Positions 1,742 through 37,295 of a stretch of 64,000 bases of DNA are shown in pieces. The position numbers were made by a program, and so were the translations under genes. The notes beneath the pieces were generated by a model. That model did not search any database. It was not told the origin of the DNA and saw only the letters and a list, made by a program, of their open reading frames with translations. Location of the stretch: positions 16,203 to 80,202 of the IMG/VR virus record IMGVR_UViG_3300028388_003330. One strand, 5' to 3'. Every line of letters starts with the position of its first letter. The first letter of the stretch is position 1. Source of the DNA: a virus.

Positions 1742-2050
1742 TTAACCAAGAGCTTGCTTTACGTTAACCGTAATCGTTGTACCTCTCAGTTTTTTCACCA
1801 CGCCTTCGAGTGTCACTACCTGTAACTCATGCTCACCGACGATGGAGAAATCGCCCTGCTCTACAGCGTATGAAACAATCCCTTTTGCTGGATCGGTAAT
1901 GCTGACCGCAGAATCTTTTGTAACAATTTCCCGGTTGGGCTTTTTAATAATAACCTGCGCATCCGTAGCGCTGGTAAGATCAACATCGGTTTCGAAGTTG
2001 ATAAGAACGCCGTAAGTGTCGGTGTAAATATCAATCATTTGTGTCTCCAA
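1742..2050 (-). CDS. BppU N-terminal-like Ig-fold virion protein
   Basis: DLTSAT..IIKKP..DPAKGIVSY...GDF...G pattern. Paralog of 16386..16688. Confidence 0.6.
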   Translation of the reverse strand: METQMIDIYTDTYGVLINFETDVDLTSATDAQVIIKKPNREIVTKDSAVSITDPAKGIVSYAVEQGDFSIVGEHELQVVTLEGVVKKLRGTTITVNVKQALG

Positions 2051-5000
2051 TACCTTTGGCGCTTCAACTTCAGGTTGATCTGATCTTTGAGGTCTATTTT
2101 AACTTGAGCGTGAATCGGCCACCAAGTTGAAGTTGCCCAAATACCCTTAATTACTTGACCTTCAGCATCAAAATTCGAATCTGCGGTAATTGACGCCGTC
2201 GCATTGGAAAGCTTGTAACGGTTTGCTGTAAGACTACCATCCGCTTCTATCAATGCGGTGCTGGGCTTGATCTTATACCGCTCAACGGTTAAGCCGCCTT
2301 CTGCATTGATGTATAGGGTAATAAGCCCTTTCGCTACGCTCGAAACCGAGCTTTCACCCTCAGAAGATGCTTGCCTTACATAAATCTTATAGTGCGTGCT
2401 ACTTTGAGAACCTTCACCATTAAAGATGATGGTGCTAACACCATGAATCTTGGTGAATTCACTACTAACAACCGCACTGGCTGTAATCGAAGCAAGCGCC
2501 TGCTTAAGCTTGTAAACCTGCGAATTGAAACTCGCCGTACTGGTAATCGACGCCGTTTTCGGCTTGATTTTGTACCTTATAGAGCTGACAGATGCGCTTG
2601 CCGAAGAGCTTGAATCGCGAACGCGAATCACCGTCCGCGTTGTAGAAACCCCGCCCTGCGCAAGAATGTTGACCGTTCCAGAGCTGGAAATTTCAGTATA
2701 AGAACTGTCAACCGACGCTTGTGCAGCGATGCTGACCGTTCTGGTAATGAACTTCTCGTAACTGGAATCAACCGTTGCGCTTGCAGCGATAGCCGCTGTG
2801 CGTACTCGAAAGATATTCGGAGTGGTTGCAACAACGCCTGTACCAGCAATGCCGGAGGCCGCAGGCTTGATGACAAAGCGATTTGCAGAAACCGCACCGG
2901 CCGCAGCAAAGCTCGCTGTTCCTTCTCCGGACTTGTTTGCAGCGGCAGTAACGCTAGAAGACGCTGTAACGCTCGCTGAGCGCACCTTGATAACGTGCGT
3001 ACTCGCGTCGTTAGTGCTAACAGAAGCGCTGGCAGAAACGCTTACAGAGCGTCCCTTAACAACGAAGCGGGCTGCAGTAACGCTGGCTGTAGCGGCGAAG
3101 GAAATCTGCCCAGCAAGCGGAATAACTTCACCCGAGATACTGACTGTATCCGGGCCGTCTTCAGCGGCAAGATCGCCTTGAACCAGTACCGATCCATCGA
3201 CACTGGCAGAGTCTTGACCCGACTCCCTGACGTTGATGGAACCAAGTATTCCATTTCCACCGTTCAGGGCTACTAAGTCTGAACCAACCTCTTGGACAGC
3301 AAGGTCACCCTGTATAAGAACAGAGCCGTCAACACTGACCGTGTCAGAGGTCGCTTCTTGGGCGGCAATGTCGCCCTGAACCAGTACCACTCCATCGATT
3401 GTCGCCGTATCAGAGCCAACCTCTTGAGCGACCAAATCACCGGAGACAATCAAAGAGGCGTCGATTGTCGCTGTATCGGAGCCAACCTCTTGGGCAGCGA
3501 GGTCACCCTGAATCAGTACCGACGCATCGACAGAGACAGAGTCCGCACCGGCCTCTTGGGCAGCAAGATCGCCTTGGATAATTGACGCTGCCGAAATGGT
3601 AACGTCGTCAGATCCAACCTCTTGGACAGCAAGGTCACCCTGAACCAGTACCGATCCATCCAAGGAAACAGTGTCGGAACCCGTCTCTTGGGCGGCAAGA
3701 CTACCGGCTATCAGTACATCGCCATCAAACGATACGGTATCAGATCCGGTTTCCTGTACAGCTAGATCGCCTTGAACAACAGCGATGACGTTACCGCTAA
3801 GCGATACAACGTCAGAGCCAACTTCTTGGGCGGCAAGATCGCCGCTGACGAGCACGTCACCATCAATAGAAACGGTGTCAGCGCCAACCTCTTGAGCAGA
3901 GAGATCACCCTGAACGATGAGAGAGGCATCGATTGCTGCAGTGTCAGCACCAGACTCTTGAACGGAGAGGTCGCCAGAGACAATCAGAGAGACGTCAATC
4001 GATACACTGTCAGCACCAGACTCTTGTGCGGTCAGAGTGCCTGTAATTGCGCCTGAAGTTGTTGTGAATTCAGCGGTTTCGACGCTATTGGTATAAGCGC
4101 CATCGGTGTTCTGCCAAACAAACGCTGCCTTATAGCTAGTGTCCGCTTGAAGCGCGTTGGCATCAAACGCAACCGCGTCTGTAAAGGTCGCCTGTTGGCT
4201 ATCACTGAACGCTGCAGCGCTGCCATTAACATCCAAACCAGCAACGATTTGATCGTCAGACGGCTTTGCTAAGGCGCTGTCATAGACAACCACATACAGA
4301 ATGCCGGGTACTGCCGTACTAAAGTGCGCAGTATCGGAGCCGGTTTCCTGAACCGCCAGATCACCCGATATTTCAACGCTTCCTGTAAGGCTTGCAACGT
4401 CCGCAGTTGCCTCTTGGGCGGAAACATCACCTTGTATAAGAACATCACCAGCAAGCGATGCGATGTCCTGCGCCGATTCCTGTACAGAAATCGAACCCGA
4501 AATAATGACATCGCCTGTAATAGCGATGGTGTCACTGCCGGATTCCTGTATTGAAATCGTTCCGCCAGCATATGTTCTGAAAGCGACGGTTTCAGAAACA
4601 CTGGAATCATTGCTTCCGTCAGACCAGACGGCAGCGGCTTTGTATTCGACGCCCTGTGTTAGAGCGGAAGGGTCAAAACTGTAGGTGTTATCGACATCCG
4701 CCGTTTTATCAAATGCGTAAACAGCAGCGCCATCTAATGCATCTGTCCCCGCTTTAATTTGTGCAGCAGTTGGCGTTGCTTTCTCACTGGTATAAACAAC
4801 GCAATAAATTCGATTGGTGGAGGGTTGTTCAACGGAACCGGTAATGTTGCAGGAATCAGAACCCGATTCTTGTGCAGCCAAATCCCCTTGAACGAATACA
4901 TCGCCGTCAAATGCAGCGGAATCTGCGCCGGTCTCTTGTACAGAGAGGTTGCCAGTAATATCTCCATCAGAAACGCTTCCACTAAACGAAAGCGAATCTG

Positions 5001-5835
5001 AACCTGTTTCTTGAGCGCCTAAATCTCCTGTTACCAGTACATCGCCGCTAAAAGATAAGGAGTCTGAACTAGCCTCTTGCGCTGATAAACCACCGCTTAC
5101 TAGCACATCACCATCGAAAGAGACGGAATCTGAACCTGTTTCTTGGACAGAAACATCGCCAGATATAAGTACATCACCATCGAAAGCCGCTGTATCTGCA
5201 CCGCTTTCCTGCGCTGACAAGCTACCGGTAATAGGCGCATCAGTGACGGCACCATCGATTGAAACACTGTCAGAACCCGTTTCCTGTGCTGACAGATCTC
5301 CGGTGATTGTTGCAGCACCCGCCGTATAGACGCCAGTAACTTCAGCAGCCGTAATGCGTTTTTCGAGAGTGTCGCCGCCTTTGACCTTAGTGACGACCAT
5401 CGTAATATTGACGATGGCACCATCCCAATCAGCTTTGGTCGCGCTGGTATCAACGCCAGTGAGCGTTATCGCCCCAGAGTTTGTTGGCGTGGTCGTCGTG
5501 ATATTAGTGGCAATGGAAACAGCATTGGTTAGCGGCGTCGTACGATCAGATTTAAAAATCTGAACCGTAATGCTGTCCCAGGTGTTTACCTGCGTGCCAG
5601 TTTGCCAGTGATAGCGCAGGTTGATTGACACCGAATCCATGGTGCCAAAATCGGCAGGCGTATCACCCAGCGCGAAGAAGCCAGATATCGCATTGTTGGC
5701 GTTATCAGTAGTATAGAAGTAGGTTGAATCGTTACTGGATGCAATAGCCTCCAGTACCGGCTCGGTACCCGTGATGGAGCACGCGGTCGAATTGACCGTG
5801 TCAAATGTACCCAGTAATAAAGTAAGATCAGCCAC
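2035..5835 (-). CDS. Long repetitive fibre/scaffold protein: ~23-aa GDLxxQExGxD repeats, two truncated FN3-like modules and Ala/Ser-rich C-terminal repeats
   Basis: 1266-aa ORF with more than 20 visible QE(T/S/V)G(S/A)D repeats. Confidence 0.75.
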   Translation of the reverse strand: MADLTLLLGTFDTVNSTACSITGTEPVLEAIASSNDSTYFYTTDNANNAISGFFALGDTPADFGTMDSVSINLRYHWQTGTQVNTWDSITVQIFKSDRTTPLTNAVSIATNITTTTPTNSGAITLTGVDTSATKADWDGAIVNITMVVTKVKGGDTLEKRITAAEVTGVYTAGAATITGDLSAQETGSDSVSIDGAVTDAPITGSLSAQESGADTAAFDGDVLISGDVSVQETGSDSVSFDGDVLVSGGLSAQEASSDSLSFSGDVLVTGDLGAQETGSDSLSFSGSVSDGDITGNLSVQETGADSAAFDGDVFVQGDLAAQESGSDSCNITGSVEQPSTNRIYCVVYTSEKATPTAAQIKAGTDALDGAAVYAFDKTADVDNTYSFDPSALTQGVEYKAAAVWSDGSNDSSVSETVAFRTYAGGTISIQESGSDTIAITGDVIISGSISVQESAQDIASLAGDVLIQGDVSAQEATADVASLTGSVEISGDLAVQETGSDTAHFSTAVPGILYVVVYDSALAKPSDDQIVAGLDVNGSAAAFSDSQQATFTDAVAFDANALQADTSYKAAFVWQNTDGAYTNSVETAEFTTTSGAITGTLTAQESGADSVSIDVSLIVSGDLSVQESGADTAAIDASLIVQGDLSAQEVGADTVSIDGDVLVSGDLAAQEVGSDVVSLSGNVIAVVQGDLAVQETGSDTVSFDGDVLIAGSLAAQETGSDTVSLDGSVLVQGDLAVQEVGSDDVTISAASIIQGDLAAQEAGADSVSVDASVLIQGDLAAQEVGSDTATIDASLIVSGDLVAQEVGSDTATIDGVVLVQGDIAAQEATSDTVSVDGSVLIQGDLAVQEVGSDLVALNGGNGILGSINVRESGQDSASVDGSVLVQGDLAAEDGPDTVSISGEVIPLAGQISFAATASVTAARFVVKGRSVSVSASASVSTNDASTHVIKVRSASVTASSSVTAAANKSGEGTASFAAAGAVSANRFVIKPAASGIAGTGVVATTPNIFRVRTAAIAASATVDSSYEKFITRTVSIAAQASVDSSYTEISSSGTVNILAQGGVSTTRTVIRVRDSSSSASASVSSIRYKIKPKTASITSTASFNSQVYKLKQALASITASAVVSSEFTKIHGVSTIIFNGEGSQSSTHYKIYVRQASSEGESSVSSVAKGLITLYINAEGGLTVERYKIKPSTALIEADGSLTANRYKLSNATASITADSNFDAEGQVIKGIWATSTWWPIHAQVKIDLKDQINLKLKRQRYWRHK

Positions 5836-6106
5836 CGCTTACCCCACAGGTTGCACAGGTCATGCCAGCCGGAGGCCAATCCCCGCAGTTATTAACAAAA
5901 CTAGGCATCAAAGGCTTGACGTTAGTTATGTAACGCGGGTCAGTATATACCGCTTTCCATGTGCCGTTCTCACGAAATAAACCGCAAGCCCAACGTCGAT
6001 TGGGTACGGTATTTTCTTCTAGGTATTGACAAACACCTCCACCGATATAGCAGCAGTGATCATCCGAATTGCCGGTGCAGATACTCATCAGAATGTCACA
6101 TCCCAA
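5828..6106 (-). CDS. Small Cys-rich metal-binding protein (YkgJ-like Cys spacing)
   Basis: C..HCC....C..L.......C...C..WP....CxxC pattern. Overlaps both neighbouring genes. Confidence 0.55.
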   Translation of the reverse strand: MGCDILMSICTGNSDDHCCYIGGGVCQYLEENTVPNRRWACGLFRENGTWKAVYTDPRYITNVKPLMPSFVNNCGDWPPAGMTCATCGVSGG

Positions 6107-8103
6107 CTAAGTGTTGCACTTGTTAATCCAGCAATTGTAACCGTTGGATTGTCTACTGTTGGCGTAGTGCTGACGTAGTAATCGAAACCGATGTCCCACG
6201 CGCCAGCAGCGGGCCATTCGTCGCCGTCGATGTCTGCGGTGAAGCTACTGTAGAGGTTAGCGCCCGCACCGATCAGCGACGATCCCGCTGCTAGGTGATA
6301 GTCATCGTTCGCAGCGTCGGCAAAGTCAGTGCTGACGATGTTGGTCGTCAGGGGGTTGGTGCCGGGAGGCGTGTAAGTGCTGGCAACATCTGACGCATTA
6401 TTGCTGCTGTTTGACGTGTCTATTGCGCCTTCTGTGTCGTACCCAACAGTTGCCCCATAGGCGACACAGTTTTTCAGAACGATAGGGCCAGTCGTTAAAC
6501 ACTCTAAAGCCGTAGTGTTTCCACCAGACACGAAAACACAGTTGTAATAATCCTGGTTTGTAAAATTTCTAACATAAACAGCCGGCGAATCCGACGCTTT
6601 ATTTATAAACGCACAGTTTTTCGCAACGAAATAATCGCCAGTTGAAGCGGTATTAAAATTAAGCGCAGTGTTGATGCGCGATGAACTATCGTTTGCCACT
6701 CTACAAAACACGGCATCAAACGAAACATAGTTTGCCTCAACATAAATACTGCTGTTTGCCGAGGAGGTTGCGCCGATCTCTCCGCAAAAGCCCTCAACGA
6801 CTGTATAATTTTGGGACACTTTCAACGGGTATCCATAGTTCTGATCGGTATAAACGTAAAACCCAGTAGCGGGTGTGCCATTGTGACGCTCTGCGCTTGG
6901 CACATACACCTTCACATAACGCTCGGAGTCCGTAGTCCATCCAGCTATAGTGGGGACATCGTTCAACCCACTCGGCCAGTCGTCGTAACACTCGGCGACT
7001 GCAATCTCGTCGGCAGCGACGAGGTCCACCTGTTCTCCAGACTCCCATGCTGACAGCGTCGTGTAGTCGCCACTGGACGAACGGATAGTCTTGGTAACGG
7101 CGATAGTCCCCCTGTGGGCACCTATGGGCCAGTGCTCTACACCATCACTGTCAGCGATAGGAACGCCTGTGATGTCGTAAATGGTAGTGCCATCACCGAG
7201 GTCACCCCCGGCTTCAAATAGCTGACTGGTTGTTGGATCAAGTGGTAGGCGGTAATCGTCGTTCGCAGCGTCTCGGAAGTCAGCGGACGTGACGTTGGTC
7301 GTCAGGGGGTTGGTGCCGGGAGGCGTTACCGTTGCGCCGTCGCTAGCGGCGTTATTAAAAGTACCCGCAGTGTATATCGCGCTCGCGCCATAAGAAAAAG
7401 AGGTTCCGCAGTTATACGCCACACAGTTCGCCCACGACACTCCCTGGTTGATGTCGTTAGAACCAGTGGAAGCCATGTAAAAACCTATGTCTGTGCAATC
7501 GACCGCGACACAGTTCTGTGCGATGTAGCCATAATAATTGGCGCGGGTCATAAACCCACGATAACCCATCCCGATGCAGTTTATGTAAATAGAACGCCTG
7601 TTTCTAAAGGCCGCGTAGGGTGTGCCGCCGTTAGAAGTGCCGTACCCAACGCAAGCAAAAGCGGTAAAATTATAAGTGCTGCTGTCGCAGTAAAAAGCGT
7701 CGCCATTTGCTGCTGTTTGCCACGCCTCGACGTACTCGATTAAAGTGTCGTTCCCAGTAACAACTTCAACTACCTCGCCGTAGTTGTCTGAGTAATACAT
7801 CCAAAACCCAGCTTTCGAGACGCCGTTATGCCGATGTCCTTCTGCGACCGTTACTTTCACATACCGCGTCGCATCCGTTGTCCACCCGTCGATTGTTAGT
7901 TTGTCGTTCAACCCACTCGGCCAGTCGTCATAGCACTCGGCTACGGCCATCTCATCAGCGGTAACAAGGTCTTTCTGCTCGCCTGCCTCCCATGCCGAGA
8001 GGGTGGTGTAATATCCATCGACGCCATACAGCGCCTCCATAGCGGACTGATTTGCCGTCCATGCGGCTGCGGTACGGATGGCATGTTTAACCTCGGTTGC
8101 CAT
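6088..8103 (-). CDS. Tandem beta-helix (pectin-lyase-like) receptor-binding/fibre protein with a C-terminal 24-aa tag
   Basis: Two homologous halves (YTTLSAWE...AECYDDWPSGLND ... PPGTNPLTTN..DAANDDY), NCVA-type helix rungs and a WDIG motif. Confidence 0.7.
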   Translation of the reverse strand: MATEVKHAIRTAAAWTANQSAMEALYGVDGYYTTLSAWEAGEQKDLVTADEMAVAECYDDWPSGLNDKLTIDGWTTDATRYVKVTVAEGHRHNGVSKAGFWMYYSDNYGEVVEVVTGNDTLIEYVEAWQTAANGDAFYCDSSTYNFTAFACVGYGTSNGGTPYAAFRNRRSIYINCIGMGYRGFMTRANYYGYIAQNCVAVDCTDIGFYMASTGSNDINQGVSWANCVAYNCGTSFSYGASAIYTAGTFNNAASDGATVTPPGTNPLTTNVTSADFRDAANDDYRLPLDPTTSQLFEAGGDLGDGTTIYDITGVPIADSDGVEHWPIGAHRGTIAVTKTIRSSSGDYTTLSAWESGEQVDLVAADEIAVAECYDDWPSGLNDVPTIAGWTTDSERYVKVYVPSAERHNGTPATGFYVYTDQNYGYPLKVSQNYTVVEGFCGEIGATSSANSSIYVEANYVSFDAVFCRVANDSSSRINTALNFNTASTGDYFVAKNCAFINKASDSPAVYVRNFTNQDYYNCVFVSGGNTTALECLTTGPIVLKNCVAYGATVGYDTEGAIDTSNSSNNASDVASTYTPPGTNPLTTNIVSTDFADAANDDYHLAAGSSLIGAGANLYSSFTADIDGDEWPAAGAWDIGFDYYVSTTPTVDNPTVTIAGLTSATLSWDVTF

Positions 8104-8897
8104 TAGCTCGCCTTGTCGAGTATCCGGCTAGCGAGTTGTGCAGGCGTCACTTCGATGACCCCGCCCATGCCAAGCGCCGTATCAACGTCAGCGTCGGACA
8201 CCCGCCAACGACGGCGGCGCACCGTCTTGCGCATGGCATCCTTCAGCGCATCGACAAAGTGCTGGCGCACGTCGGTACGAGTGAACTCTGCGGTGATGAC
8301 ATCGCCCGTCACATCAGTGATCGTCGCGTTGGCCTCCTGAATCTGGGCCTGCGCATTCTGCACCGTCACGCTAGACGCCGACACATCGACCGTGGCAACG
8401 TGAACGCCGGTACCCTGGTCGTAGGACTGCTCGGCGATGGTAATGCCCAGCGTCGTGGGGTCTTGCCCCCAGAACCCCTCCGACTTGTAGGCGTCCTGAA
8501 CGGTGATGTCGAACCGCACCTCGTTGGTCGTCGTGCTGACAACCGACGCACCCCACTTAGTGAGCCAGTTTTCCACCTGCTCGCGGGTGATGCCGTACTC
8601 ATTTGCCGCACCGGGGGTTTCGGTCCATATCCGTACCCGGACACCATCGACAGCGGCATCAGTAGCGACGATCTCGTAACCAAGTTCACGCCGCCAATCA
8701 TCGCGCCGGTCTTCTACCTGCTCGACCGTGACGCCAGGAACCTTGACGATGACGAACGTAGGCGGGCCTTCTTTACCGCCCCACTCATGCCCATCCGGCA
8801 TGACGACCACGATGTCACCCTTTTTGTAGCATCCCTGCTCGTCGGTATCCGGGTCCGGGTGGGTGGCGTCAATTGCTTTTATAAGGAATTCGGCCAT
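8103..8897 (-). CDS. Fibre-associated hypothetical protein, paralog of 53689..54489
   Basis: Start moved to MAEFL by alignment with the paralog. TAATG coupling to the downstream gene. Confidence 0.7.
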   Translation of the reverse strand: MAEFLIKAIDATHPDPDTDEQGCYKKGDIVVVMPDGHEWGGKEGPPTFVIVKVPGVTVEQVEDRRDDWRRELGYEIVATDAAVDGVRVRIWTETPGAANEYGITREQVENWLTKWGASVVSTTTNEVRFDITVQDAYKSEGFWGQDPTTLGITIAEQSYDQGTGVHVATVDVSASSVTVQNAQAQIQEANATITDVTGDVITAEFTRTDVRQHFVDALKDAMRKTVRRRRWRVSDADVDTALGMGGVIEVTPAQLASRILDKAS

Positions 8898-8913
8898 TTT
8901 GAACCTCAAATTA

Positions 8914-9246
8914 CTAGAATGTAATTGTACACCCTACAGTCGCACTAGTTGGCCCTGTCACTGTAAACACAGGCAAACTTAATACCGGGTTGCTTACATC
9001 TGAGACAAACGTTTGGTGAACAGCAGTGCTGTAATCGGTCCCGTCGTACCAGACGGCGCTGACGCGGTAGCTGACGCCAGCCGTCAGGCCAGAGGCGCTG
9101 AAGTTCTCGGTGCCCGATACGTCGGCCAGTTGGTTGCTGGCGTAGGTCGCGGCGTTACCGTCGGCACCCTGTCCTGCGACGATCTGCGCTGCGGTCGCCG
9201 TGCCTTGGCTGGATGGGTAGACCGAGAGGTAAAGCGTATCGGCCAT
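8914..9246 (-). CDS. Circularly permuted FN3-like adaptor protein
   Basis: LYLSVY..TAAQIVAG..GLTAGVSY core followed by the 24-aa PVLSLP...TITF tag. Confidence 0.65.
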   Translation of the reverse strand: MADTLYLSVYPSSQGTATAAQIVAGQGADGNAATYASNQLADVSGTENFSASGLTAGVSYRVSAVWYDGTDYSTAVHQTFVSDVSNPVLSLPVFTVTGPTSATVGCTITF

Positions 9247-10115
9247 TAGAACGTCACACCCACGGCAATATCAGCCGTGGTCTGCCCGATGTTAGTGATG
9301 ACCGGCGTGCCGAGGGTTGGGGCGTTACTGGTCGCGCCGGGGATGCTGAACAGGTAGGGTGCGTCGTTGGCTGGCTTCAGCCACGAATAGAGGTCTCTTG
9401 ATAACTGCTTGGCGACGGCAGAAGATGCCCCACGATGGTCAAGCATGAGAAACGATGCTATTTCACCATTAAACGCGGTTATAGGAGGCTCGTTTATTGC
9501 TGTCGCACCAATTTGTGCGAAAGCATCTAAATCCTGTACCTCCACGGAATGTGCGGTGTTATGAACTTCAACACCACCGACAAATGCAACAAGACAATTA
9601 TTTAAACGACCAGCGACTAAATGCTGCCACTCACCGTCACTAAAACCCGTAAATGTATAGTTTATCCCCGTGCTGTTGTGCGTAAGCGATACTCTGATAT
9701 CGTTCGACCAGTTCACCCTAGATATAACAAAAGAGTCTCCACTGTTGCTATTTATAGCAAAAATTATTCCGTTTCCGTCTCCGCCGGAGTGATTTGATTT
9801 GAATTCAACCGAAACTAAAAAATCGCCAGTAATGCTCGCCGCATAGTCTATCGGTATAGAATTATCAGAATCGTCCGCTACATCCCACGCAAACCCGCCG
9901 CTTGATGAAGTCCACGATCCAGTGGGACTTGCATACGTTTCGTTAACTTGCGCTGTGGCTAAGTCAAAGAAATCTCTTTGAAAGAGCATCGCGACCTTTA
10001 CACCGGGCACGTTTAACGCAACAGGCCCAATAGGCTTCCTTCCAGGCACCAACAAATTCGGCTCGCGCAACGCATACGCCAGTGCGGTCTGGCTGGGGAC
10101 GACTAGCTGGGCCAT
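9246..10115 (-). CDS. LamG/concanavalin-A-like lectin protein with a C-terminal 24-aa tag
   Basis: DGEWQHLV, FVGG and QIG...FNGEIA LamG-type motifs. Confidence 0.7.
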   Translation of the reverse strand: MAQLVVPSQTALAYALREPNLLVPGRKPIGPVALNVPGVKVAMLFQRDFFDLATAQVNETYASPTGSWTSSSGGFAWDVADDSDNSIPIDYAASITGDFLVSVEFKSNHSGGDGNGIIFAINSNSGDSFVISRVNWSNDIRVSLTHNSTGINYTFTGFSDGEWQHLVAGRLNNCLVAFVGGVEVHNTAHSVEVQDLDAFAQIGATAINEPPITAFNGEIASFLMLDHRGASSAVAKQLSRDLYSWLKPANDAPYLFSIPGATSNAPTLGTPVITNIGQTTADIAVGVTF

Positions 10116-16385: not shown

Positions 16386-16688
16386 TTACTGCAAAGCCTG
16401 CTTGACATTGAAGGTTACAATATCAGATCGAAGCTTTCGTTCTACACCAAACAACACAACAACCTGCATTTTATGTAGACCCTGGCTTTCAAAATCGTTC
16501 GCCGCAGTCATGTATTTTACAATCCCATTTTGCGAATCATGAATGATTGCGGACTGATTTGTTACCAAACCCTGCGGATTTAGTATATCAACACTTGCTG
16601 ATGTTGCCTCTGTAAGATCTGCTCCAGTCTTAAAATAGAGAGCTACACCAAAAGTGTCGGTAAAAAGAAGATCTCTGACAACCACCAC
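16386..16688 (-). CDS. BppU N-terminal-like Ig-fold protein
   Basis: Aligns with 1742..2050 (TDT(F/Y)GV, DLT.AT, GIV.Y, H..QVV, KLR). Confidence 0.6.
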   Translation of the reverse strand: MVVVRDLLFTDTFGVALYFKTGADLTEATSASVDILNPQGLVTNQSAIIHDSQNGIVKYMTAANDFESQGLHKMQVVVLFGVERKLRSDIVTFNVKQALQ

Positions 16689-16930
16689 TACTCTCCTTCA
16701 CCGGTATTCAGATATACAGTCCGTTCAAACAGGAAATTCTGCGCCTTAATTTCGCCCCTGATGGGCGCTTCTACGATTGGACTTTCGACCATGTAGGCTT
16801 TCAGATTAATTCCATCTATCGGTGTAAGGTTAACAGATATTTCGCCTGTCAGCGATGCGGAGAGAGCAGATTCATCCCTAAGTGAAAGGTCTATGACTTC
16901 TACATGGGATTCAGTATTTACGTCACTCAC
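16688..16930 (-). CDS. Hypothetical protein
   Basis: 80-aa coupled ORF. Confidence 0.5.
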   Translation of the reverse strand: MSDVNTESHVEVIDLSLRDESALSASLTGEISVNLTPIDGINLKAYMVESPIVEAPIRGEIKAQNFLFERTVYLNTGEGE

Positions 16931-18566: not shown

Positions 18567-18954
18567 AGGACAGCTCCTTGGATTTAGCAGGGAAAGTGTC
18601 GATGGAGACGGTGTAGTCGCCGGGAAGCTCGGCAGTTATTTCCAGAACCCCATCGTCCACCGTAACTCGTTCAAGCACGCCCACTGCAGATAGGGTGACA
18701 ACGGCACCAACAGGCACGCCAGACAGCGTGGCAACGTCTACACCGTCAGCGACGATGGACGTCTTATCCAGTTGAGCGGGGTTGTCGGGTCGCAGGACAG
18801 GCTCGCCGTCAGGAAAATATGTGGACGCTGCGTCGAACTCTCCTTCATAGTGTCCCTCGTCGGCATTTACGTTATTCGCCAACCCGCTTTCAACGCCGAT
18901 GTGTATTTTGACGACGCGCCCGGTATCTGTTTTGTAGATGGTGTAAACGCTCAC
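18553..18954 (-). CDS. Tail-fibre assembly/chaperone-like protein
   Basis: YTIY...TGRV...EG pattern, directly after the gpJ-like gene. Confidence 0.55.
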   Translation of the reverse strand: MSVYTIYKTDTGRVVKIHIGVESGLANNVNADEGHYEGEFDAASTYFPDGEPVLRPDNPAQLDKTSIVADGVDVATLSGVPVGAVVTLSAVGVLERVTVDDGVLEITAELPGDYTVSIDTFPAKSKELSFVAT

Positions 18955-21900
18955 TTCTTCACCTCAAGCGCAGAGATAATTAGGTCGTCCACTTTTACTT
19001 CTATATCGTTTCGACCGCTTTCATAGGTGTTAGAAACATACAAATCTACTGAGTACCTACGAGTCCCAGCAGGCGGAACGTCCATGTACACAAACGTGAT
19101 AAAGTCGCCGCCCCCTTCGCGATACCTCGCTATTTGAGTGCCACCATATATGTGTACATCATCTCTTTTAAGGTCCATGTACAACGAATCGTACCCATCG
19201 CCGTTGGCGCTGGATATAACCATCCGCATACTAACTGTTATCAGCGCTTCGTTACCAGTAGCCGTATACGTTAAGTATCCGTACTCCGTCCAAGTGTTTG
19301 CAACAGTAGTAAGAGTTGTGAATTTATTCGTCGTTGGTATGGTGACCGCCCTGTCAGCTATCTTTAACGTAGTGACAGCAAGTTCATCTATCTGAAGCGT
19401 ACCAACCGCAAGCTCAGCGATATGCCCTCTTTCCACAATCTCCAGGGAGTCGGCCTTCAGAGAAGAGGCTTCGATATTCCCCCTGGCGTAGATGTCGTTA
19501 AACTGGGCGTTGCCGTTTTTGTTTATCCACCAGCCAGACGTTACGTTGACGAAGTTGGTAGACTGTATCGTGTTGCCGATATAGGCATCACCTATGGCGC
19601 CAGCGGCGATAACAGTAGAAACGTTACTCTGATTAATCTCGTCGATGAACGCGAAAGTACCACTCTCTGAGCCAGCAGACTGCAGGCAGGCCCTGGCCAT
19701 GTTCCAGGCTTGGTCCCTGTTCCAGAACTCGCGGTAGTACCGCGCCTCGGAGAAGATGCCCCCGTAGTACACACCGGAACCGAGAGAAGACGTATCCCAG
19801 TCGCCTTCGCTGTTTCCGCCAATAGCCACTGCACGGGCTGTCGTTGTGAAGCTGGACGTCGTGCCGAGCGTCGAGGTCTGGTATGACCCGTCGGCGTGGA
19901 ACATGTAGTAGTGGAGTTCGTTCGCGTCCTTGTCGAACGTGACGATCAGGCAGTGCCACTCGTCCTGGTATATCGCGTCAGTAAGCGTGCTGGGGTTGCC
20001 GAATGCAAGGCTGACATTCATCTTGCCGTTGCCGTCGTACGTGGATTCGGAGGTAGAAACCCCCCAGCCATCTGATAAGTCCCGAGTAACAATCCGCGCC
20101 CCTGAAGGGGGAGGCGTGGACGGGGCTTTAAAGACAAACACCCACGACTGCTGCGGGTAGGTCGCGTACGCCGTGTCCACATTCTTCGCGAGCTTGACCC
20201 CTGCGCTGTCTATCTGGACGCCTTTGCCAAGGTTGGCCTGGACTACACTTACCGAGTTCGCGCCGTTGCTCAGAGTCACATAGCCAAGTTTGGCGGTAGC
20301 GTCCTTGAACTCTCCGCTGTCGTCATCGCTGTAATCTGTTGCAAACGACCAACGCCCAGCAAGTTTTGTCGGGTTTGGTAGGCTGTCTGGATAGCCGGTG
20401 AAGTTATCCCAGAAGTCAGCACCAACAGTTGCACCGTCTTCGATGTTGTTTAGCTTAGTGCCCTCGGCGGTGCTGATTTCCGACAGCGAGGTGGGAGTGC
20501 CGGAGAGATCGTCGTACTCGGTTGTGCCGCCACCTGGGATCGCATAGGTCGATGGGTTGGACAATGCCCCGACCCGCTCCTCGAACATGATGCCGTCGAA
20601 CCACACGTCGCAACCCGCACCGCCTTCGTTGTCTACGCGAAGCAGAAGGCGGGTGGAGGTGGTATCCGCCGAAAGGTCTATCGTGGCCGTGATGCGCTTC
20701 CAATCACCGGGTGTAGCGGCGCAGGTGAAGTTGTAGCCGAGATAGGTATCGTTTAACTGCCGCCGGGTGTATAGCTGCACTGCCGCGTTGGCGGTGTTGC
20801 TGCGGACGTAGCAACTGAACAGCCACACTTTACCCGGCTCTATCGGGATGTTGTAGTTAGTTGCGCCATCACTAAGAAAGACGTACCCATTATCGCCGGT
20901 CGCCGCTATCTTTAGGCTGTGCCCACCGAAATAGCTGACAGTGGCGTCTAGGCTTACGGTAGCCGTCGACGCCTTAGCCAGCGTCGGGAAAATATTCTCG
21001 AACACCGAGTACCGATAGTTGGCAATGTTGACGCCACTACCTGCCGTGTTGTTGTAGGTACTGTCGGCGTCAAGCTCGCCCACGTAGTCGAGGTCGTAGA
21101 TCGAACTGTTGGTCTTCGCCAGGGCGCTAACAAGCGGGGCACCCTTGTAGATGCTGAACGGTATGTCGAGCCACGCATCGGGGTCGTCATCAACCTCGCC
21201 AGCGTAGGCTTCAAAACCGTTGCCTTCCCCACAGCCTGGGATGCCGATGAGAACGTAAGCGCTGCGGTTCTTGAACAGATTGGTCGAGCCGTAGACCGCC
21301 TTTGATGCGCCGCAGCGGTACATCGCCGCGTCTAAGCCGTTAGCCAGACGGTTGTTCTCTGGTTCGTCGAAGCCGTAAACGACCACGATCTTGGTGTTGT
21401 CAAGAGCGTTGAGCGCAGCGGCCATCGTTGTGGCGTTAGCGACGCTACCGTAAACATCGTAGGTCTGACCAGACTCTCTGAGTCCGGTTGTGCGGTTGAA
21501 CACAACCATGGTATAGGAACGCCCGATGCCCTGGATCTGGGTGTCGTCTTCGTCGTAAAGGCCATGCCCATGGGCGGAATAAGTGGCTTGGTTACCCTTA
21601 GTTACCACCCGGTACATCAGCGGACGACCTGACAAGTTGGCAGTCCAGTCAGCGCCAACGGTCGCTTCAGGCTGTACGCGGCTGACCTCGACGTGGGACA
21701 CCTTGACCGTGCCGGTACACGCGCCAACGATGATCTGCACGCTGACCTGACGGCAGTCAGGCTGCAGCGCGGCAGCAGAACCCTCCAGCCAGTACCACTG
21801 ACCTTTGGTTACACCACCATCGTCGCTTACTAGATCTGGCCACGAGCCAACGGCGGTGCTTGCGCCAGCGCTGGTTTTCTCATTCAGTTCGATCCGGAAT

Positions 21901-24900
21901 CCTGTCCCGTTGTAGTCGGTCGAGAAATACACCCGCGCGCGGCAGTACAGCTTCTCCCCTTGCAGCAGTGGGATGTACTCGCCCCTGTTGGTGTAGCATG
22001 TCTGACCATAGGCTGTCGCCGTGGGGTTGACCACTTGCCAGCAGGGACCGCCGTCTTCCGCCCCCGTAGCCGATACCGTGGCGCCCCCCGTGACGTTCCA
22101 GAACGACGTGTCGCCGGACGCGTACTTTATGAATCCCGGATCGCCGCAGAAGTTGTAGCCCATCGGCGCGTACTTGTTCAGCAACTGCTCGTCGGGCGGC
22201 ATGTTATCTAGGTTAGTGCCCCAGGTTGCACCTACGGTCGCGCCTTTCTCGTATCCACCGATAGGCCGTATCTGCACGGCGTCTACGTCGTAGTAACGTG
22301 ACGTTGCCGTCCAGTGGTACACAGCGAATGAGGCAAATTTGGCCCCGGCTGTTGGAGTGTATGTGTAGGTGTCTTCTTGCCACGTCGTTCCGGGGTACTG
22401 CCCGTTGTTATATACAGAAACGAACGTGGTTCTAGTATCAGTCAACGCACTAGTACCACCAGCTCCTATGTGAGTTTTGCCCTCCGCGAGCGCAGAGCTT
22501 TTCTCGTTGAACCGGAGATACAGCCCAGTAGTGCCTACGCTCTCAGCACGATGGCGAATCGTTACCTCGTAAGTTTGCTTGTCGTCGATGGGTATTGCGG
22601 GCCACCCGTAAGCAACGCTGGCGTCATTCGCGTGGGAAATACGCATCCACGTCTTAGTGGAATCGCCCCAAGCAAATGCAGCCTTGCTATTCGTGCTTTC
22701 AACCGCTTCTATACCAGCAGGTTTGCCGTCTGGGCCGTTTATGGACAGGTTCCAGTTCGGCAGCATCCCTGAAACAGCCGATACGTCCCAGGCCGGAGTA
22801 GCCTTGACGACGATGTTTTCCGTTGCAGCACCGTCGGCGTTTGACGCCCATATCGCGATGGTGTTGGTGCCTTCAACAGCGTCCCCAACGCGGTAAAACC
22901 ACCAGCTTGTGTTATCAGGCTGCGAGCTAACTTCGTTGTAGTGTAGGTTTGCGCCTATGGTCGTTCCATTGAGTGCGAGTTGCACCCCGCCTTCAGCATC
23001 GCGTATCAGGACGCCGATAATGATCTTACCCGCCACGGGGCAGTTGAATGTCCACGTATCGGCGCTAGCAATCGTCGTGCTCATGGGAATGCTGTCGTTG
23101 ATGGCCCCTGTAGTGAACAGAGTGGACCCAGCAGCGAACGCAGCCTCTAGCGCGTCATACCATTCCTGCTTGGTCTGGCCTACAGTCGCACCGTCTTCGA
23201 TGTTAGTTAACTTAGTGCCCTCGGCGGTGCTGATCTCCGACAACGAGGTTGGTGTACCAGAAAGGTCGTCGTATAAAGTTGTTCCACCTCCGGGTATCGC
23301 GTAAGACGAGGGGTTGGACAATGCCCCGACCCGCTCCTCAAACATAATGCCATCGACCCACAGATCACATCCTGCACCGCCGTCGTTATCAATACGAAGG
23401 CGAAGACGAGTTGAAGTGTCTGCGCTAAGGTCAAGCGTCCAGGTGATACGTTTCCAATCACCGGGCGTAGCCGCGCAAGTAAAACTGCCACCTGGGGTAG
23501 TGCCGTCGGAGTTCCTTACGGCACGCAACTGCACTGCGGAGTTTGCGAGACTGCTGCGGACGTAGCAACTGAACAGCCAAACCTTACCGGGTTCGATAAT
23601 TACGTTCCAGTCGCTAGCGTTTTCGGCAAGAAGAACATAACCATCATTGTCGGTTGCCGATATTTTCAGACTGTGCCCACCGAAATAGCTGATGGTGTCG
23701 TCGTAACTAACCGTTGCGCGGACAGGTACTAACGTCGGGAAAATGTCCTCGAATACCGAGCAACGGTAGTCGGCAATGTTGACGCCACTGCCTGCCGAGT
23801 TGTTATAGGTGTTGTCGGCATCAAGCTCGCCCGTGTAGCCAAGACCGAGAATAGTTACCTTTCCTCCACCGGCTCCAGACAGCGTCCCGTCGTCGGCTAG
23901 TTCAATGACGGTGTTGTCAATAGATTTATCAAAGAACGCAAACCGCAGGTTGTCGAAAATGACGGTGCCTTGGAACTGCCCACCGGACATGCCGGTATAA
24001 GACGCCATTAGGTGAATCTGTAATCTATATATCTGCTCGCCAGGGTTAAGGCGGGCGGTAAACGGTACTTTCTGCCAGCCGGTGGTCGTCAGCGGGGCTG
24101 TGAACGGTGTCCGCCTGTAGCTCCCGGAGGTGTTATAGAACAGATCAACCAGAATACCTGGGCGTCCGCCTGCGACATAGTTTTCAATGTATATGTCGAA
24201 CGCACCGGAGACGAAGGTATCAGCCGGAAGCGGGGTGTCGTAGAACGACACAGTGCGAACTATGCCGAAGTTAGTGGCAGCCGGTACGACAAACTTCACC
24301 GCGTAGGGGCCGATGCGCCTGAGCGTCGTCTCTTTTACTGGAGTGCCCACTCCGTAGCTGTTCCACCCTGTTGGCCTAGTCTGACCATCCGGCCAATCAC
24401 TGAACGTCGGGTTGAAGCCTAGAGCAACTGAATCGTCGTTGGTGTAGATGCTGTCGTAGGGGATGTTGGTGACGTTGCTGTTGAAGTCAGCGCCTACGGT
24501 CGCGCCGTCTGCTGGCAGGTTGGTGTTGGTTGCTATCAGCGAACTGAGTACGTCGATGCCAGTACCGGCTGCGGTAGTCCATTTTCTACCAATGGCGACA
24601 ATGCAGTCAGTGTCCAGCGGTGTGAACGTGTATTTCACATTGCCGTTATCAACCGCCTGCCATGTATCCGTGTCAATGTCATAAATCGCGCCGAAGAATT
24701 CAACGGCAGTTCCGAAATTGTTGGCGAACCGTGTGTTAGGGGACTCGTCCGTATAGATGATGTAGAACGGGTCTTGCTTAATCCCACCTTCCCACGCCGT
24801 GTTTAGCTGGGTGTCGTTGGTTATGCTGCGCTTCGTCCCATCCGGGTGATAGAACGTTGTGCCCGTTATGCGGATCTCACCGGGGTTCGCACTACCATCC

Positions 24901-27900
24901 CCAAGTTCGTTTTTAAGTAACCTAACATCGCCGAACCCACCAGTGTGCATCGACCCCAGCGCAGCGCGATTGAGAGCAACAGGAACACCAGACACTCCGT
25001 CCCAATTTGCCGTATCACCAAGACCTGCGCCGTCAGTCAGTTCACTAGTGTTTGTGATGTAATTGGCGTTGAGTGCGCCCGTATAGTCGAGGTCAAGAAC
25101 GCTACCGCCAGAAAAATTGATTCCATCCCAATTTATCTTGCCGCCCGACTGCAAGACGATATTGCCAGATGAATCGCGAATCGTTATTTGCGAAAATTCT
25201 GCCGATCCAGATTTATCAATCCTCCAACCACTTGTTGGCGTGTAGTTAAGGCTTTGAATGTAATCGCCGATTTTCGCAGTGGAAATAGTGCCATCTTGTA
25301 TATAAGTTTCATCGATATATACAACGCCATTGCGAACAATAAATGGTACAGATACATCAACGCCATTCGGATCAAGAATAGAAAACTGATTCGCAAGAAT
25401 CGCCACCTCTGAACTGGTGGTTCCAGATTGATCGTTTTCAACAGAGAGACCAATACCTGCTATTGCTGTTTTTCCATCAGCGGCACGAGCTTCTACTTTT
25501 ACGGTGTATTCTGAGGAAAGAAGCCCGTCTTTATCTGCACGCGCTTTGGCTTCTCGCTGAACTGCCGCTATTCCCAAGCCGTCATAGTCCCTAAGAGCCC
25601 GACGCATACCACGAGCAACATACTCATCGTCGCTCAGGTTGTTAAGCCGCAGCATGAAAGGGGCGGTTCCTTCAAACCGCACCGGGCCGCTGTAGAGCGT
25701 CGGGTCCACGCCGCCGATATTACCAACTTCGACTTTGCCGACGTTGTCGCGAGATGCGTAGGACAGGTCGTGGGTGGCGACTACGCCCGTGGAGTCGATA
25801 ACAGTGATAACGCAGGGCTCTACTGCCGCAACAACGTAGTCAGATACGTTATGGGCAATAAGATAAGTGTCGCCCAGCATCTTCGTCGAGATAGCGGGTT
25901 CGCAGTCGCCACCGGCGCTGTCGCCAATAGCCGTAGTCTGAACGAGTCCAGGGGAAGTGATGTAGTGCGAATTGCCGAGTGATGTTTTCTCGTACGACGA
26001 GTTTACGCTGTCATAAATAACACTGGTGTAGCGCGCCGCCAGAATCTCACGCGCCATCGGCAACAGACAGGTGTAGTCACCAGCGTTACCCTCGGCGAAG
26101 GCGACGATATCCGAACTGGACTCGATAATGACAAACGCCGGTTCAGTAACCGTCGTTGACCACGTCTGCACCGTGCCGGACGGGACCGTGACCGTAGCAG
26201 TCGGCGAGCTAAAATCATACAGCGGCGTGCCAGCATTGTTTATCTTGACGACTGCAGATCCCGACACCGCATAAAAATACAAAGTTACCGGCGAATAGCG
26301 GTTGTAGTAATGCCCGAAGTATCTGCCGCAATCAGAGAATGCTGGAACCTGATCGCCGCGATCCTGTAGCTCAAACTGCGTGGGCTTGTTCGCCGTGAAT
26401 ATGTCACCAAGAGACGCGGTACGAGTGATGACACTCATCGCGTCCAGCGGGCCAGCGGTCTCTACACTGTTTTGGTAGATGTAGGTGCCGTCTTCCAGCG
26501 CTGCGATGCGAATGGTCTGGTCTCCGGAGGACCCGAGCACCACCCTTGGAGACGTAAGCGCCTGCGCATTTATATAAGAAGGTTCATCAGATCGAACATC
26601 AGTCAATGCCGAAAGCTGTTGAATAGATTCTGCTCGGGCGGTTTGTTCATCAGAGATTACATCGTCGACATAGGTAATTGAGGCTTTGAGATCAATATCA
26701 GCCTGAAGACCGTCGTCGGCAGTTTGATAATCCGTTTCCAGTTGAGAGATTGCGGTAGCTCTTGCCGTCGTTTCATTAGAGACTGCCGTGTCTACATAAG
26801 TAATAGACGCCTTCGACGATGAAAGGTCGTTATAACCCCAGTCCGAATAAACAGGAACAACCTCATAACCTGCGGGTGTGTAGGTATGATCACCAATCGC
26901 ATCTGCAACAGCATCTTGGCGAGTATCGATCCAGCTATTACCTACAACGCCATAGACTGAAACCTGTACTCGACCAGCAATTTCTTTGGCGTTTTCCAGA
27001 TTCAGTACATAAATGGTTGTCTTGTTTGCTGTTGGGTCATGATAGACCGCCAACCGATCTGGAATTTCTACATCATTGCGCCAACGATATACAGCGGTTC
27101 CTACAAACGTACCAATACCGTCATGTACAAGACCGTTACTGTTTGTAAAAACAGAAATATCAACGTCTGCTGAATTATCTTGGCGACCAGCCCTTGTACC
27201 GTAACGGACGCGACCAGATAGAGCTAGTCCGTGATAATTACCGGTATTTGTATACTCAAATATCTTAAACGCCGCTGTTGTGCCACTGCCGTTATGAATC
27301 TTTAGATCAACGTTATAAACCGTTTCAACTGCAGGTAGCGAAACCTTATCAAAATCACCAATGGGCACACCGTTCTGCAGATCGGTAACATCATCGGCGA
27401 TAAGAGAATCGGCAGCTTTATAATCAGCGTCTAACTGCGACAACGCCGTGGCGCGAGCCTGCTGCTCATCAGAAATTACATCGTCGACATAGGTAATTGA
27501 TGCTTTGGCATCAATATTGGTCTGAAGACCTGCGTCAGCAGCTTTGTAATCGGTATCTAACTGCGTCAACGCTGTCGCACGAGCCTGCTGCTCATCAGCG
27601 ATTGCATCATCGACATAGGTAATCGACGCTCTGGTATCGATAGCGTAATCGGCGGTAGCGTCTTCCAGCATTATTGCGCCGACTTCCGTTGTTCCTGCTA
27701 CACCGCCATAGTTGGCAATGAAAACGGGACGCATATAGCGAACGTTTTCGTGAGCAAGATGCGGGGCCTCTGCTGTGCTAGCGCCCGAATAATCTCCAAG
27801 CGGCGAGCCGTACCCTTTGGTATAACCGGTAATAACTTCCCAAGTTGCTGCTATGGTGCTTTTACCACCGCCAGTGGTGTGATAGTGCTGATTGTTGAAA

Positions 27901-33654: not shown

Positions 33655-34020
33655 TCAAACCTCACGAAGCTTGATGCTCGTAACATCAAAATAATGCGTA
33701 CCACCGACGCCCTTATACTTAAAATCCATTTCCTCTTCAAAGCGAACTGTGACCTCTTCAAGCGTTGTCGGAATCGTCCATGTAAAGCTCTTAGAGCCGC
33801 CCAACTGCGTGTTCCAGAACGTTTCCAGTAGCGCTCTATCCGCCTCTGAGATCTGCGTAAAACCCGTTTTAAACACTCTACGAGGGCGTCGCGTGTATCG
33901 TGGGCGAGTTAGTTGATAGCCGCCATCGGTACTGGTTCGAATTGCGGGGTCTTCTTGACTAACCTCGAAATATTTCGAATCTTCCTTGGATGTCATTCCA
34001 GCAGGAGGGAAATCACTCAT
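33655..34020 (-). CDS. Distal tail protein (gpM-like)
   Basis: GGY...RPR...F.W..P pattern, following the tape measure gene. Confidence 0.8.
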   Translation of the reverse strand: MSDFPPAGMTSKEDSKYFEVSQEDPAIRTSTDGGYQLTRPRYTRRPRRVFKTGFTQISEADRALLETFWNTQLGGSKSFTWTIPTTLEEVTVRFEEEMDFKYKGVGGTHYFDVTSIKLREV

Positions 34021-37000: not shown

Positions 37001-37295
37001 CAAGAAGCTTGCCCATACGCTCAAGCGTGGCGTTGGCATCAATAATCTGCTGCTGCCAATCCCAAACAACAGCACGCATGTTAACCAGCGCATGACGAGC
37101 AAGACCGGTGATTGTAACGAAATCACGCATCTTCCCTGAAAAACTAGTGACATGCCGCTCCATGCGACGCACAGAGTTGGCAGTCCTGTCGAGATTGACG
37201 CCAAGGGTTCGAACCGTTTTACCAGCAACTCGGGTGCGCTCAACAAAACCACTGTCGTTAAGCTCAAGCTCTACTTTGATTCTGCTGGTAGCCAT
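34017..37295 (-). CDS. Tail tape measure protein
   Basis: 1092-aa helical protein with IQQMAGKGVISMEELRQQLGE tape domain and FADGG/GEG..EAYVPL C-terminus. Confidence 0.92.
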   Translation of the reverse strand: MATSRIKVELELNDSGFVERTRVAGKTVRTLGVNLDRTANSVRRMERHVTSFSGKMRDFVTITGLARHALVNMRAVVWDWQQQIIDANATLERMGKLLEGMSEAATASERVKEAGENLQWLITKAQEAPFSLNELGNTFVKFRSVGIDPTNGSMQALLDSVARFGGNDQILHRATIAIQQMAGKGVISMEELRQQLGEAVPRAIQLLARSMNMTFRELVNAISKGTVESMSALEKMFGEFRRNYEGAAFELMSTWIGMTQQMRTQWMVFLNDVGQAGFFDAAKQEFQSLINAFADGQFKSVAENIGQALAAMVRGLRSFIDFLVNNWDAIKVFGKALATAFAINTLLNFSRALRASVVPAIAASSMAMKKFAVDVSVAMFAIRTAPTALSATTAAIGAFTFAIRGLVSALGLVAPILIAFTTLFYALDSAAKTAEETISEMDLNFVSSQDVVTAKQALNEIEGEYNRVLTRIEKAERDGTAKSQDDMRKLADLRSKYLNARIKFAQIEEAFSRQVTTREKRNARQAMSEQLVEAKNAYQTTAAIQDEFLRRKEITNEQHKTNMINIARTMYAKMGEAYLSEMKETEAALETARKQGAEDSIKKLEARLSVEREMYLEHREQSARELKAMELANVFITDSAGEEKKANKLETYLNSLANKAIDAKAELAGMNGELAKFQFMLESGQFGKAGVQLLGDPKAWDKAKEKVLEAENSYKAAIEARRQATQITQLVDSTQKSNEAGLQKMLQMRRQLESGYNNETAVEARIRGLIEWLDALVAKSPAAEAAIAELRSELQEGLTIEQDRKALQDAFNFKERARLIRQGLLTEREMRRAEYEYEKELLEQRLLDFEGDSEAQVAMQRELYGLLDALRDQYMRDTETAIQALNRDWQDITDEMEQAWVDFANNATDAIMDFVETGKFEFADLITSMLRELIRLQIQKNIVGPLTSALSSAVSGMFGASDFGGSFIGSSSLGGGPTPVFADGGIMTPAGKLPLRSYASGGIADSPQLALFGEGRMNEAYVPLPDGKNIPVTLTGQQVPNVQVNVINQSGQPVKANQGQTKFDGRQMILDVVLEAANRPGGFRDGLRGAVR

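Follow-up and report, generated by a model that had tools for sequence, protein, structure and literature searches.

A candidate split FN3-like domain that may dock accessory proteins in trans in a siphovirus late region

In engineered split systems built on immunoglobulin (Ig)-like or fibronectin type III (FN3) domains, such as SpyTag/SpyCatcher and FN3 fragment complementation, a short peptide corresponding to one or more terminal strands rebuilds a beta-sandwich; these systems are artificial, and the link made by SpyTag is an isopeptide bond. Programmed frameshifts are reported, in work attributed to Fraser et al. in 2006, to append Ig-like domains to the structural proteins of phages. Anastellin, a fragment of the fibronectin FN3 domain III-1 without strands A and B, binds strands A and B of another FN3 domain (PDB 5j6z; Stine et al. 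2017, PMC5612498, cited in PMC13233970). Here, we analyze a 64,000-nucleotide stretch of viral DNA (the window; positions 16,203 to 80,202 of IMG/VR record IMGVR_UViG_3300028388_003330) in which three proteins end in a common 24-residue tag and three modules of ~86 residues appear to lack the two FN3 strands to which that tag corresponds. On balance, we lean toward docking in trans by fold complementation, with the tag of one protein completing the A-B-less module of another. Comparative evidence for this reading is solid; physical evidence for it is as yet weak.

The tag is ungapped and closes three otherwise unrelated minus-strand proteins, a LamG-like protein of 289 residues, a protein of 110 residues and one of 671 residues, with eight positions invariant in all three (P1, P6, T9, G12, T14, A16, T23, and F24); the preliminary description of this DNA had pointed these out, and its coordinates and sequences were confirmed. 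Any two of the window tags share 10 of their 24 residues. When the C-terminal 24-mers of the window are compared in pairs (83,845 in all), only 6 pairs reach at least 10 identities, namely the three pairs of tags and three pairs of paralogues. A six-frame scan of the 64 kb returned no other segment ending in the tag pattern. The tags have diverged in DNA while remaining conserved in protein, and conservation therefore acts at the protein level. The three homologous modules that had been described alongside them, one forming the N-terminus of the 110-residue protein and two inserted into a 1266-residue repeat protein (the repeat scaffold), were borne out by a hidden Markov model (HMM; individual E values in Table 1) and are the only copies in the 80-kb genome record.

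That HMM, of 117 positions, was built from 60 foreign complete domains only. The window modules cover its positions 15, 17, or 28 to ~101-113 (E = 6e-13 to 2e-15), and the tags of the 110-residue and LamG-like proteins cover positions 1-22 and 1-20, respectively. A profile of 11 tags aligned with the A-B part of the complete domains without a gap over 24 columns, at positions 2-25 (hhalign P = 2e-4). When an HMM was instead built from foreign tags only, the LamG tag was the best match in the window (E = 0.016), and the tags of the 110- and 671-residue proteins were not recovered by it, profiles of 24 residues being too short for HMMER. These alignments support an in-register correspondence of the window sequences with the complete-domain family, in which the tags would represent strands A-B and the modules strands C-G; the same assignment, proposed earlier from a likeness to bacterial FN3-like domains, thus holds.

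Run in full over 1.84 billion cluster representatives, a HMMER search with the 110-residue protein gave 140 matches at E <= 1e-3, which define a widespread domain family outside all curated libraries. One class of homologue consists of complete domains, often in tandem, of the form DTTPPxLSxPxxxxxGxTTAxxxVxTDEGNGT-LYxVVxxSxxxPSxAQ(I/V)KAGQ... Another has the module at or near Met1 (MA-x-T-LY..), with 39 of 112 motif occurrences no more than 8 residues from the protein start and a further 23 no more than 45 residues from it, several of the latter after an MLL(T/L)L(L/F) leader. Members of the third class carry the module straight after another domain, without an A-B stretch. Tags always end at the C-terminus or one residue short of it, mostly in T-F, T-Y, or T-W; complete domains run on with TDEGNGT where the tags stop, and the terminal aromatic residue is absent there. 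One homologue, P0130, has a tag-type sequence (PTLSAATVTDLGSTTARPRVTTT) in cis before its module. The top foreign match, P0002, was discarded as an unrelated repeat protein whose score was summed over 14 repeats. Searches of Pfam and PHROG at E <= 0.01-0.1 returned nothing for the 110-residue protein, the repeat scaffold, or the complete-domain homologues P0004 and P0010, none of which matched Pfam fn3 (PF00041) or another curated Ig/FN3 family, and we found no family for the phage split domain in curated libraries. Among the module proteins, tag proteins, and homologues, only the LamG protein gave a family (Laminin_G_3), and PDB sequence searches yielded only a spurious match to EspR.

The division of the domain recurs in other phages, as seen in 41 viral contigs collected through the module alignment. 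In four lineages (the window, L008, L015-17, and L065), a tag and its stop codon directly precede a gene that begins with a Met1 module. The upstream gene in L008 and L015/16/17 ends in ..PTLSLP.VT.IG.T.A.PRVT.TY-stop and the next starts with (V/M)A..(L/I)YYVIY; in L065, ..LPTLSALTTKPGTLTSTGFTVQVTAS-stop is followed by a gene starting MATTLHYILIG. The gap from stop to start in these three lineages is 0-1 nt (TGA-n-ATG type), and their frame offset is +1, as opposed to -1 in the window. Elsewhere, proteins of ~245-280 residues, LamG-like where tested, end in the tag, and the module gene lies 0.7-2 kb downstream with 1-3 genes between (L007, L009/14, L010/12/13, L022, L024/25, and L027). In the lineage linked to P0073 (L048, L051, L055, L056, L060, and L062), proteins of ~280 residues end in PTLSLPTYVPGSLTSSAFRPRVTATWS-stop, and an A-B-less module gene ~2.1 kb away is present at each of the six loci whose downstream DNA extends for at least 2.3 kb. 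Fourteen loci pair a single tag gene with a single A-B-less module gene, compared with three and three in the window, and no genuine tag was found in the 14 loci that have only complete domains. Counted by lineage, as delimited by eye from tag identity, a nearby C-terminal tag gene accompanies 11 of the 14 with A-B-less modules and none of the 13 with complete domains only (Fisher p = 3e-5), so that tag and module co-occur, mostly at 1:1, as the preliminary description had anticipated.

Several features of these relatives were recorded in passing. Module genes with a non-adjacent tag gene usually have the hydrophobic leader MLL(T/L)L(L/F) and ~6 residues before LY (L006, L007, L010-13, L018, L024/25, L027, and L029; P0051, P0062, P0063, P0072, P0084, P0093, P0125, and P0131), and those with an adjacent tag gene start the module at Met1; the leader might act in cis as a placeholder for a strand. 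Many module proteins end in an acidic-then-hydrophobic tail, ..EEDxLLLLLAA (P0007, P0015, P0028, P0053, P0060, P0082, P0109, P0119, and P0128; also L009:4941-6287 and L024:4962-6281), which may be a second, independent terminal docking motif. At L015:4700-5010, and also in L016, the TGA of a 451-residue open reading frame (ORF) is followed by 66 in-frame codons, the last of which encode the tag PTLSLPTVTAIGATQATPRVTLTY-stop; the Met1-module gene comes directly after them. A small tag-only protein could start at a GTG two codons past this TGA; alternatively, readthrough of the TGA could provide optional tagging of the 451-residue protein.

At the junction between the LamG-like and 110-residue genes of the window, the LamG stop codon overlaps the start of the next gene (TAATG), and the LamG tag, F-stop-MADT, and LY together give the exact loop spacing of the complete domain (..V.TTDEGNGT-LY..). 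The LamG-like protein is homologous to a tag-bearing protein of 276 residues from L017 (E = 5e-5). Two homologues, P0020 and P0106, are natural fusions in which a LamG-like C-terminus (..NDTPYLVSLPDAATQT) runs straight into LYVVVQPS.. with no hairpin, and a Rosetta-stone argument from these sequences supports the view that LamG-like and module-bearing proteins belong together. The coupling at TAATG, the strictly terminal position of the tag, and the terminal aromatic residue would fit a free terminus that evolved for docking, not a broken gene. The 110-residue protein is most likely an adaptor because it is made solely of a socket and a plug, an architecture that recurs in P0017, P0067, and P0073. 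Proteins of this kind make sense only as adaptors or polymerizing links, which is an indirect argument for further open sockets. In P0017 and P0050 (also in ORFs of L066 and L068), short His-rich repeats lie between module and tag (..ATHSHTADNVTL.. / ..AAHSHTADSATV..) and may form a metal-binding linker.

Predicted structures liken the module to FN3 domains. The AlphaFold2 (AF2) model of the 110-residue protein, from a 53-row alignment, had a mean predicted local distance difference test score (pLDDT) of 85, with the module above 90 and the tag at 56-59; in a 199-residue piece of the repeat scaffold, module C scored 91-98 and the flanking units were low-confidence hairpins (55-72). Comparison of the module with 48,161 PDB representatives by VIA-align retrieved almost only FN3 domains, over 64-76 residues at a root-mean-square deviation of 2.0-3.3 Å and with Z values (5.4-6.4) that are middling on the program's own calibration; Foldseek on the 110-residue model also gave a list dominated by FN3, in which all E values exceeded 0.3 and none was significant. 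Judged from these models, the module fold is likely FN3-like. Only residues ~25-95 of FN3 are matched (e.g., 25-94 of 3b83 and 26-93 of 1oww among single-domain entries), and because the alignment begins near residue 25, the module model corresponds to strands C-G without A-B. The VIA-align list includes the anastellin complex itself. In a predicted complex of module residues 1-88 with the 40-residue LamG tail, the ipSAE (interaction prediction score from aligned errors) was 0.60, 0.60, and 0.65, as compared with 0.02 for the best of three controls; the runs had 93% or more of their contacts in common, the pLDDT of the partner was 68 or higher, and the output listed no residue-level interface. 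Of 80 solved complexes, 58 reached the mark that these runs passed, as did 2 of 110 mismatched pairs, with 7 of the 80 and both passing mismatches lying at an ipSAE of 0.60 or under, counts that hold only roughly here because the run used our own alignments. The prediction, made for the LamG tail with the 110-residue module, lends weak support to binding. The core of the original proposal, a split domain completed in trans, gains support from the in-register homology, the match to FN3 residues ~25-95, the recurrence at gene borders, the co-occurrence, and the LamG fusions; binding itself has a weak computational pass.

We propose that an FN3-like beta-sandwich, from an undescribed family of phages and bacteria, is divided in the B-C loop between separate polypeptides. 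The plug would be the C-terminal 24-residue tag, forming the A-B hairpin, and the socket would be the ~86-residue module, an anastellin-like fragment of strands C-G. After translation, the tag would insert into the module of another protein, completing the sandwich and forming a non-covalent tether; the A-B hairpin would add two strands to E to make up the A-B-E sheet and would cover the core of the C-G fragment. In the best-supported pair, the LamG-like protein would plug into the 110-residue protein encoded by the next, translationally coupled gene. The tag of the 110-residue protein could then carry the LamG head to a further socket, either one of the two scaffold modules or another 110-residue subunit, and the 671-residue protein would dock likewise through its own tag. 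Physical binding, the assignment of tags to sockets, the place of assembly on the virion, and the exact 3:3 wiring are all what we infer. The tagged proteins may plausibly be receptor-binding heads on a fiber. In the relatives, the cassette adjoins head-tail connector genes, just upstream of the head-tail adaptor/neck genes, a position that would fit head fibers or decoration as well as tail fibers. We further speculate, with considerable doubt, that this is a natural donor-hairpin assembly built on a universal split-FN3-like plug and socket, in which proteins with both halves (the 110-residue protein, P0017, P0067, and P0073) daisy-chain or polymerize like pilins, and interchangeable lectin- or enzyme-like heads clip onto multi-socket fibers while the fiber gene is unchanged.

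How many sockets are available depends on the modules of the repeat scaffold. The 22-residue QETGSD units of this protein are interrupted by the modules, where the unit spacing becomes 108 residues (86 + 22). The preliminary description had named the adjacent repeat as a possible cis source of strands A-B. We found no support for this candidate: the units have no detectable relation to the tags (hhalign P = 0.91) or to A-B (P = 0.66), AF2 leaves the preceding unit unpaired with the module, albeit with flanks of low confidence, and the FN3 superpositions begin at the module. That the preceding units are neither related to A-B nor modeled as A-B, and that tags and modules number three each, would favor the scaffold modules as open sockets. 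Partial homologues of the scaffold are P0003, P0050, and P0128, of which P0050 is a scaffold-like protein with 22-residue units, one module, and a terminal tag; P0003, the closest relative, was not found in viral or metagenome contigs.

Several observations weigh against docking by fold complementation, and some of them favor a different explanation, in which the tag is a conserved docking peptide and the modules are self-sufficient five-strand domains, the tag acting by edge-strand augmentation or on another virion partner. On this explanation, only the LamG-to-110-residue junction would be an old gene fission, the scaffold modules would be closed, and at most one socket would serve three tags, making the heads alternatives or competitors. 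The A-B hairpin is wholly absent in the P0020 and P0106 fusions and in the internal modules of P0007, P0048, and P0110; from the fusions it follows that a module can exist without A-B. AF2 is confident on the module without A-B, and given this confidence and the A-B-less fusions and internal modules, the module may be stable on its own. The HMM alignments of the scaffold modules creep into the preceding unit, beginning at position 15-17 and not 28, with low posterior, and L020 has an internal module like those of the scaffold and no tag gene within 4 kb; the scaffold modules may therefore not be free sockets. L019, L020, and L021 all have an A-B-less module and no tag in the collected DNA. The tag of the 671-residue protein was not recovered alone by either HMM, many of the loci are near-identical so that the independent lineages number about a dozen, and the score of the predicted complex may come partly from likeness to solved FN3 structures, the two chains being halves of a common fold. 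Nevertheless, the tags are in-register homologues of A-B, they accompany truncated domains and are missing wherever the domain is whole, and proteins made only of module and tag make little sense without a second socket. We consider the docking-peptide explanation unlikely, while giving it real weight.

Two further explanations were weighed. Recoding, by frameshift or reinitiation at the overlapping stop and start, would fuse the upstream protein to the module and produce a complete domain in one chain; the two codons overlap or lie 1 nt apart, the loop spacing would be kept, and in L015/L016 one in-frame TGA separates the 451-residue ORF from 66 codons that close with a tag. The shift needed is nevertheless -1 in the window and +1 in L008, L015-17, and L065, and the sequences show no slippery heptamer. 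Unrelated genes follow two of the window's three tags, and most lineages have tag and module genes 0.7-2.2 kb apart with other genes between. We regard recoding as extremely improbable, and we rejected programmed frameshift or readthrough on the differing frame offsets and the non-adjacent genes. It also seems very unlikely, if slightly less so, that tags and Met1 modules are recombination scars between mosaic fiber genes, with FN3-like domains as linkers and no function in assembly. Phage fiber genes are indeed mosaic, and the tag-bearing bodies differ (LamG-like, 671-residue, and 110-residue). Scars would not account for tags that have diverged in DNA and are conserved in protein, for an exact C-terminal end point kept in about a dozen lineages, or for tag counts equal to module counts. 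Docking in trans by fold complementation remains the reading toward which we lean.

The record is 80,202 bp long, with an estimated completeness of 73%, and the window covers its right-hand 64 kb. By its PHROG matches, the minus strand carries the late region of a siphovirus (Table 1), and the split-domain cluster lies at its far end in the direction of minus-strand transcription, in the order 144-residue ORF, LamG-like, 110-residue, 264-residue ORF, 671-residue, 86-residue Cys-rich ORF, 1266-residue repeat protein, 102-residue ORF, and phoH. No match to GenBank phages was obtained by megablast or tblastn, and a search for homologous proteins at near lengths led to a single relative. The 671-residue protein, which the preliminary description called a beta-helix protein, is an internal duplication, with TLSAWEAGEQKDLVTADEMAVAECYDDWPSGLND.. 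appearing again ~340 residues on and both halves closing with ..TPPGTNPLTTN..DF.DAANDDY.L; it had no sequence match in Pfam, PHROG, or PDB. The 86-residue Cys-rich ORF is translationally coupled to both neighbors, through TGATG to the 671-residue gene and GTGGCTGA to the scaffold gene, and may encode a Zn-binding chaperone or a small structural protein; neither it nor the 264-residue ORF matched a Pfam or PHROG family. Paralogous proteins of ~102 residues (49% identity, E = 6e-26), with a weak BppU_N-like match, are encoded at 1742-2050 (-), right after the scaffold gene, and at 16389-16697 (-), 14 kb upstream. Downstream of the tape measure gene, a 4554-residue ORF (18951-32615, minus strand) contains out-of-frame inner segments with 15 of 24 C-terminal residues in common, which indicates internal DNA repeats.

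Table 1. Coordinates of the tags, modules, and surrounding genes in the 64-kb window
Feature	Position	Strand	Remarks
LamG/ConA-like 289-residue putative head protein gene	9246..10115	minus	Pfam Laminin_G_3 E = 5e-6, just under cut-off
Tag 3 (candidate plug) PTLGTPVITNIGQTTADIAVGVTF	9249..9320	minus	C-terminus of LamG-like protein; stop TAA; HMM positions 1-20
110-residue protein gene	8914..9246	minus	Module (socket) + tag (plug), nothing else; candidate adaptor or extender
Module a (candidate socket), residues 1-86 from Met1	8989..9246	minus	HMM positions 28-101, E = 2e-14
Tag 2 (candidate plug) PVLSLPVFTVTGPTSATVGCTITF	8917..8988	minus	C-terminus of 110-residue protein; stop TAG; HMM positions 1-22
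264-residue ORF	8103..8897	minus	Between 110- and 671-residue genes; ATG 8897 after GAGG ribosome-binding site
671-residue protein gene, tag-bearing	6088..8103	minus	Stop TGA overlaps next ATG (TGATG)
Tag 1 (candidate plug) PTVDNPTVTIAGLTSATLSWDVTF	6091..6162	minus	C-terminus of 671-residue protein; stop TGA 6088-6090
86-residue Cys-rich ORF	5828..6088	minus	~9 Cys, motifs CTGNSDDHCC and CATC; context gene
1266-residue repeat scaffold protein gene	2035..5835	minus	N-terminal domain, 24 22-residue units, two modules, second repeat type in C-terminal half
Array of 24 QE(T/S)G(S/A)D 22-residue units	3157..5316	minus	Interrupted by two modules
Module B (candidate socket), scaffold residues ~343-428	4552..4809	minus	HMM positions 15-110, E = 6e-13
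Module C (candidate socket), scaffold residues ~517-602	4030..4287	minus	HMM positions 17-113, E = 2e-15
Large terminase	45479-46774	minus	PHROG
Major head protein	42012-42917	minus	PHROG
Tape measure protein	34017-37295	minus	PHROG
Portal, scaffolding protein, Ig-domain major tail protein		minus	Late region; PHROG

If docking in trans by fold complementation is correct, phages would have a previously undescribed route for attaching accessory or receptor-binding proteins, by completing a fold across polypeptides. A socket and a tiny C-terminal tag, both portable, would account for the swapping of unrelated heads among phages with no rebuilding of the anchoring protein. The pairing would supply an annotation rule for orphan structural genes, whereby genes ending in the tag are paired with a gene starting MA-x-T-LY, and engineered split-domain tags would gain a natural equivalent, of use in protein assembly and in the retargeting of phages in laboratory strains. 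Should the broader donor-hairpin assembly also exist, swapping of host-recognition modules would be genetically cheap, and the plugs and sockets would amount to a ready-made orthogonal protein-ligation toolkit.

Literature searches brought up no paper in which phage virions use a split FN3 domain or donor strands. Anastellin has the fold and the cut proposed for the phage module, in that a C-G fragment with an exposed core takes up, by beta-strand exchange, the A-B hairpin of a different chain. It is, however, obtained from an animal matrix protein by recombinant expression or proteolysis and promotes promiscuous polymerization, whereas the phage halves are separately encoded, conserved, and genetically paired, and anastellin and the phage module have no sequence relationship. 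Chaperone-usher and type V pili also complete an incomplete Ig-like fold with a strand of the next subunit, a subunit that has both a socket and a donor can polymerize, and tip adhesins cap the fiber. In pilins, it is the C-terminal G strand that is absent, and a single N-terminal strand takes its place, whereas in the phage proteins the N-terminal A-B strands would be missing and the donor would be a C-terminal hairpin. The neighboring genes matched no chaperone or usher family in Pfam or PHROG, and the likeness to donor-strand exchange, as an analogy, is one of mechanism only and does not make the phage system a chaperone-usher member. Cohesin-dockerin complexes resemble the phage locus in their layout, with a repeat scaffold on which multiple receptor modules sit and a short terminal docking tag common to catalytic or binding proteins that are otherwise unrelated; cohesin, in contrast, is a complete domain, dockerin is a Ca-binding helical module, and no fold is complemented. 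Pfam gave no match to cohesin or dockerin in the nine proteins of the cluster. The Ig domains of the type attributed to Fraser et al. share with the phage module the position of an accessory Ig/FN3-like domain at the border of phage structural genes, but they are complete domains added in cis by recoding, whereas here the domain appears divided, the frame offsets vary, and the genes are often non-adjacent. The putative split FN3-like domain of phages belongs to none of these systems.

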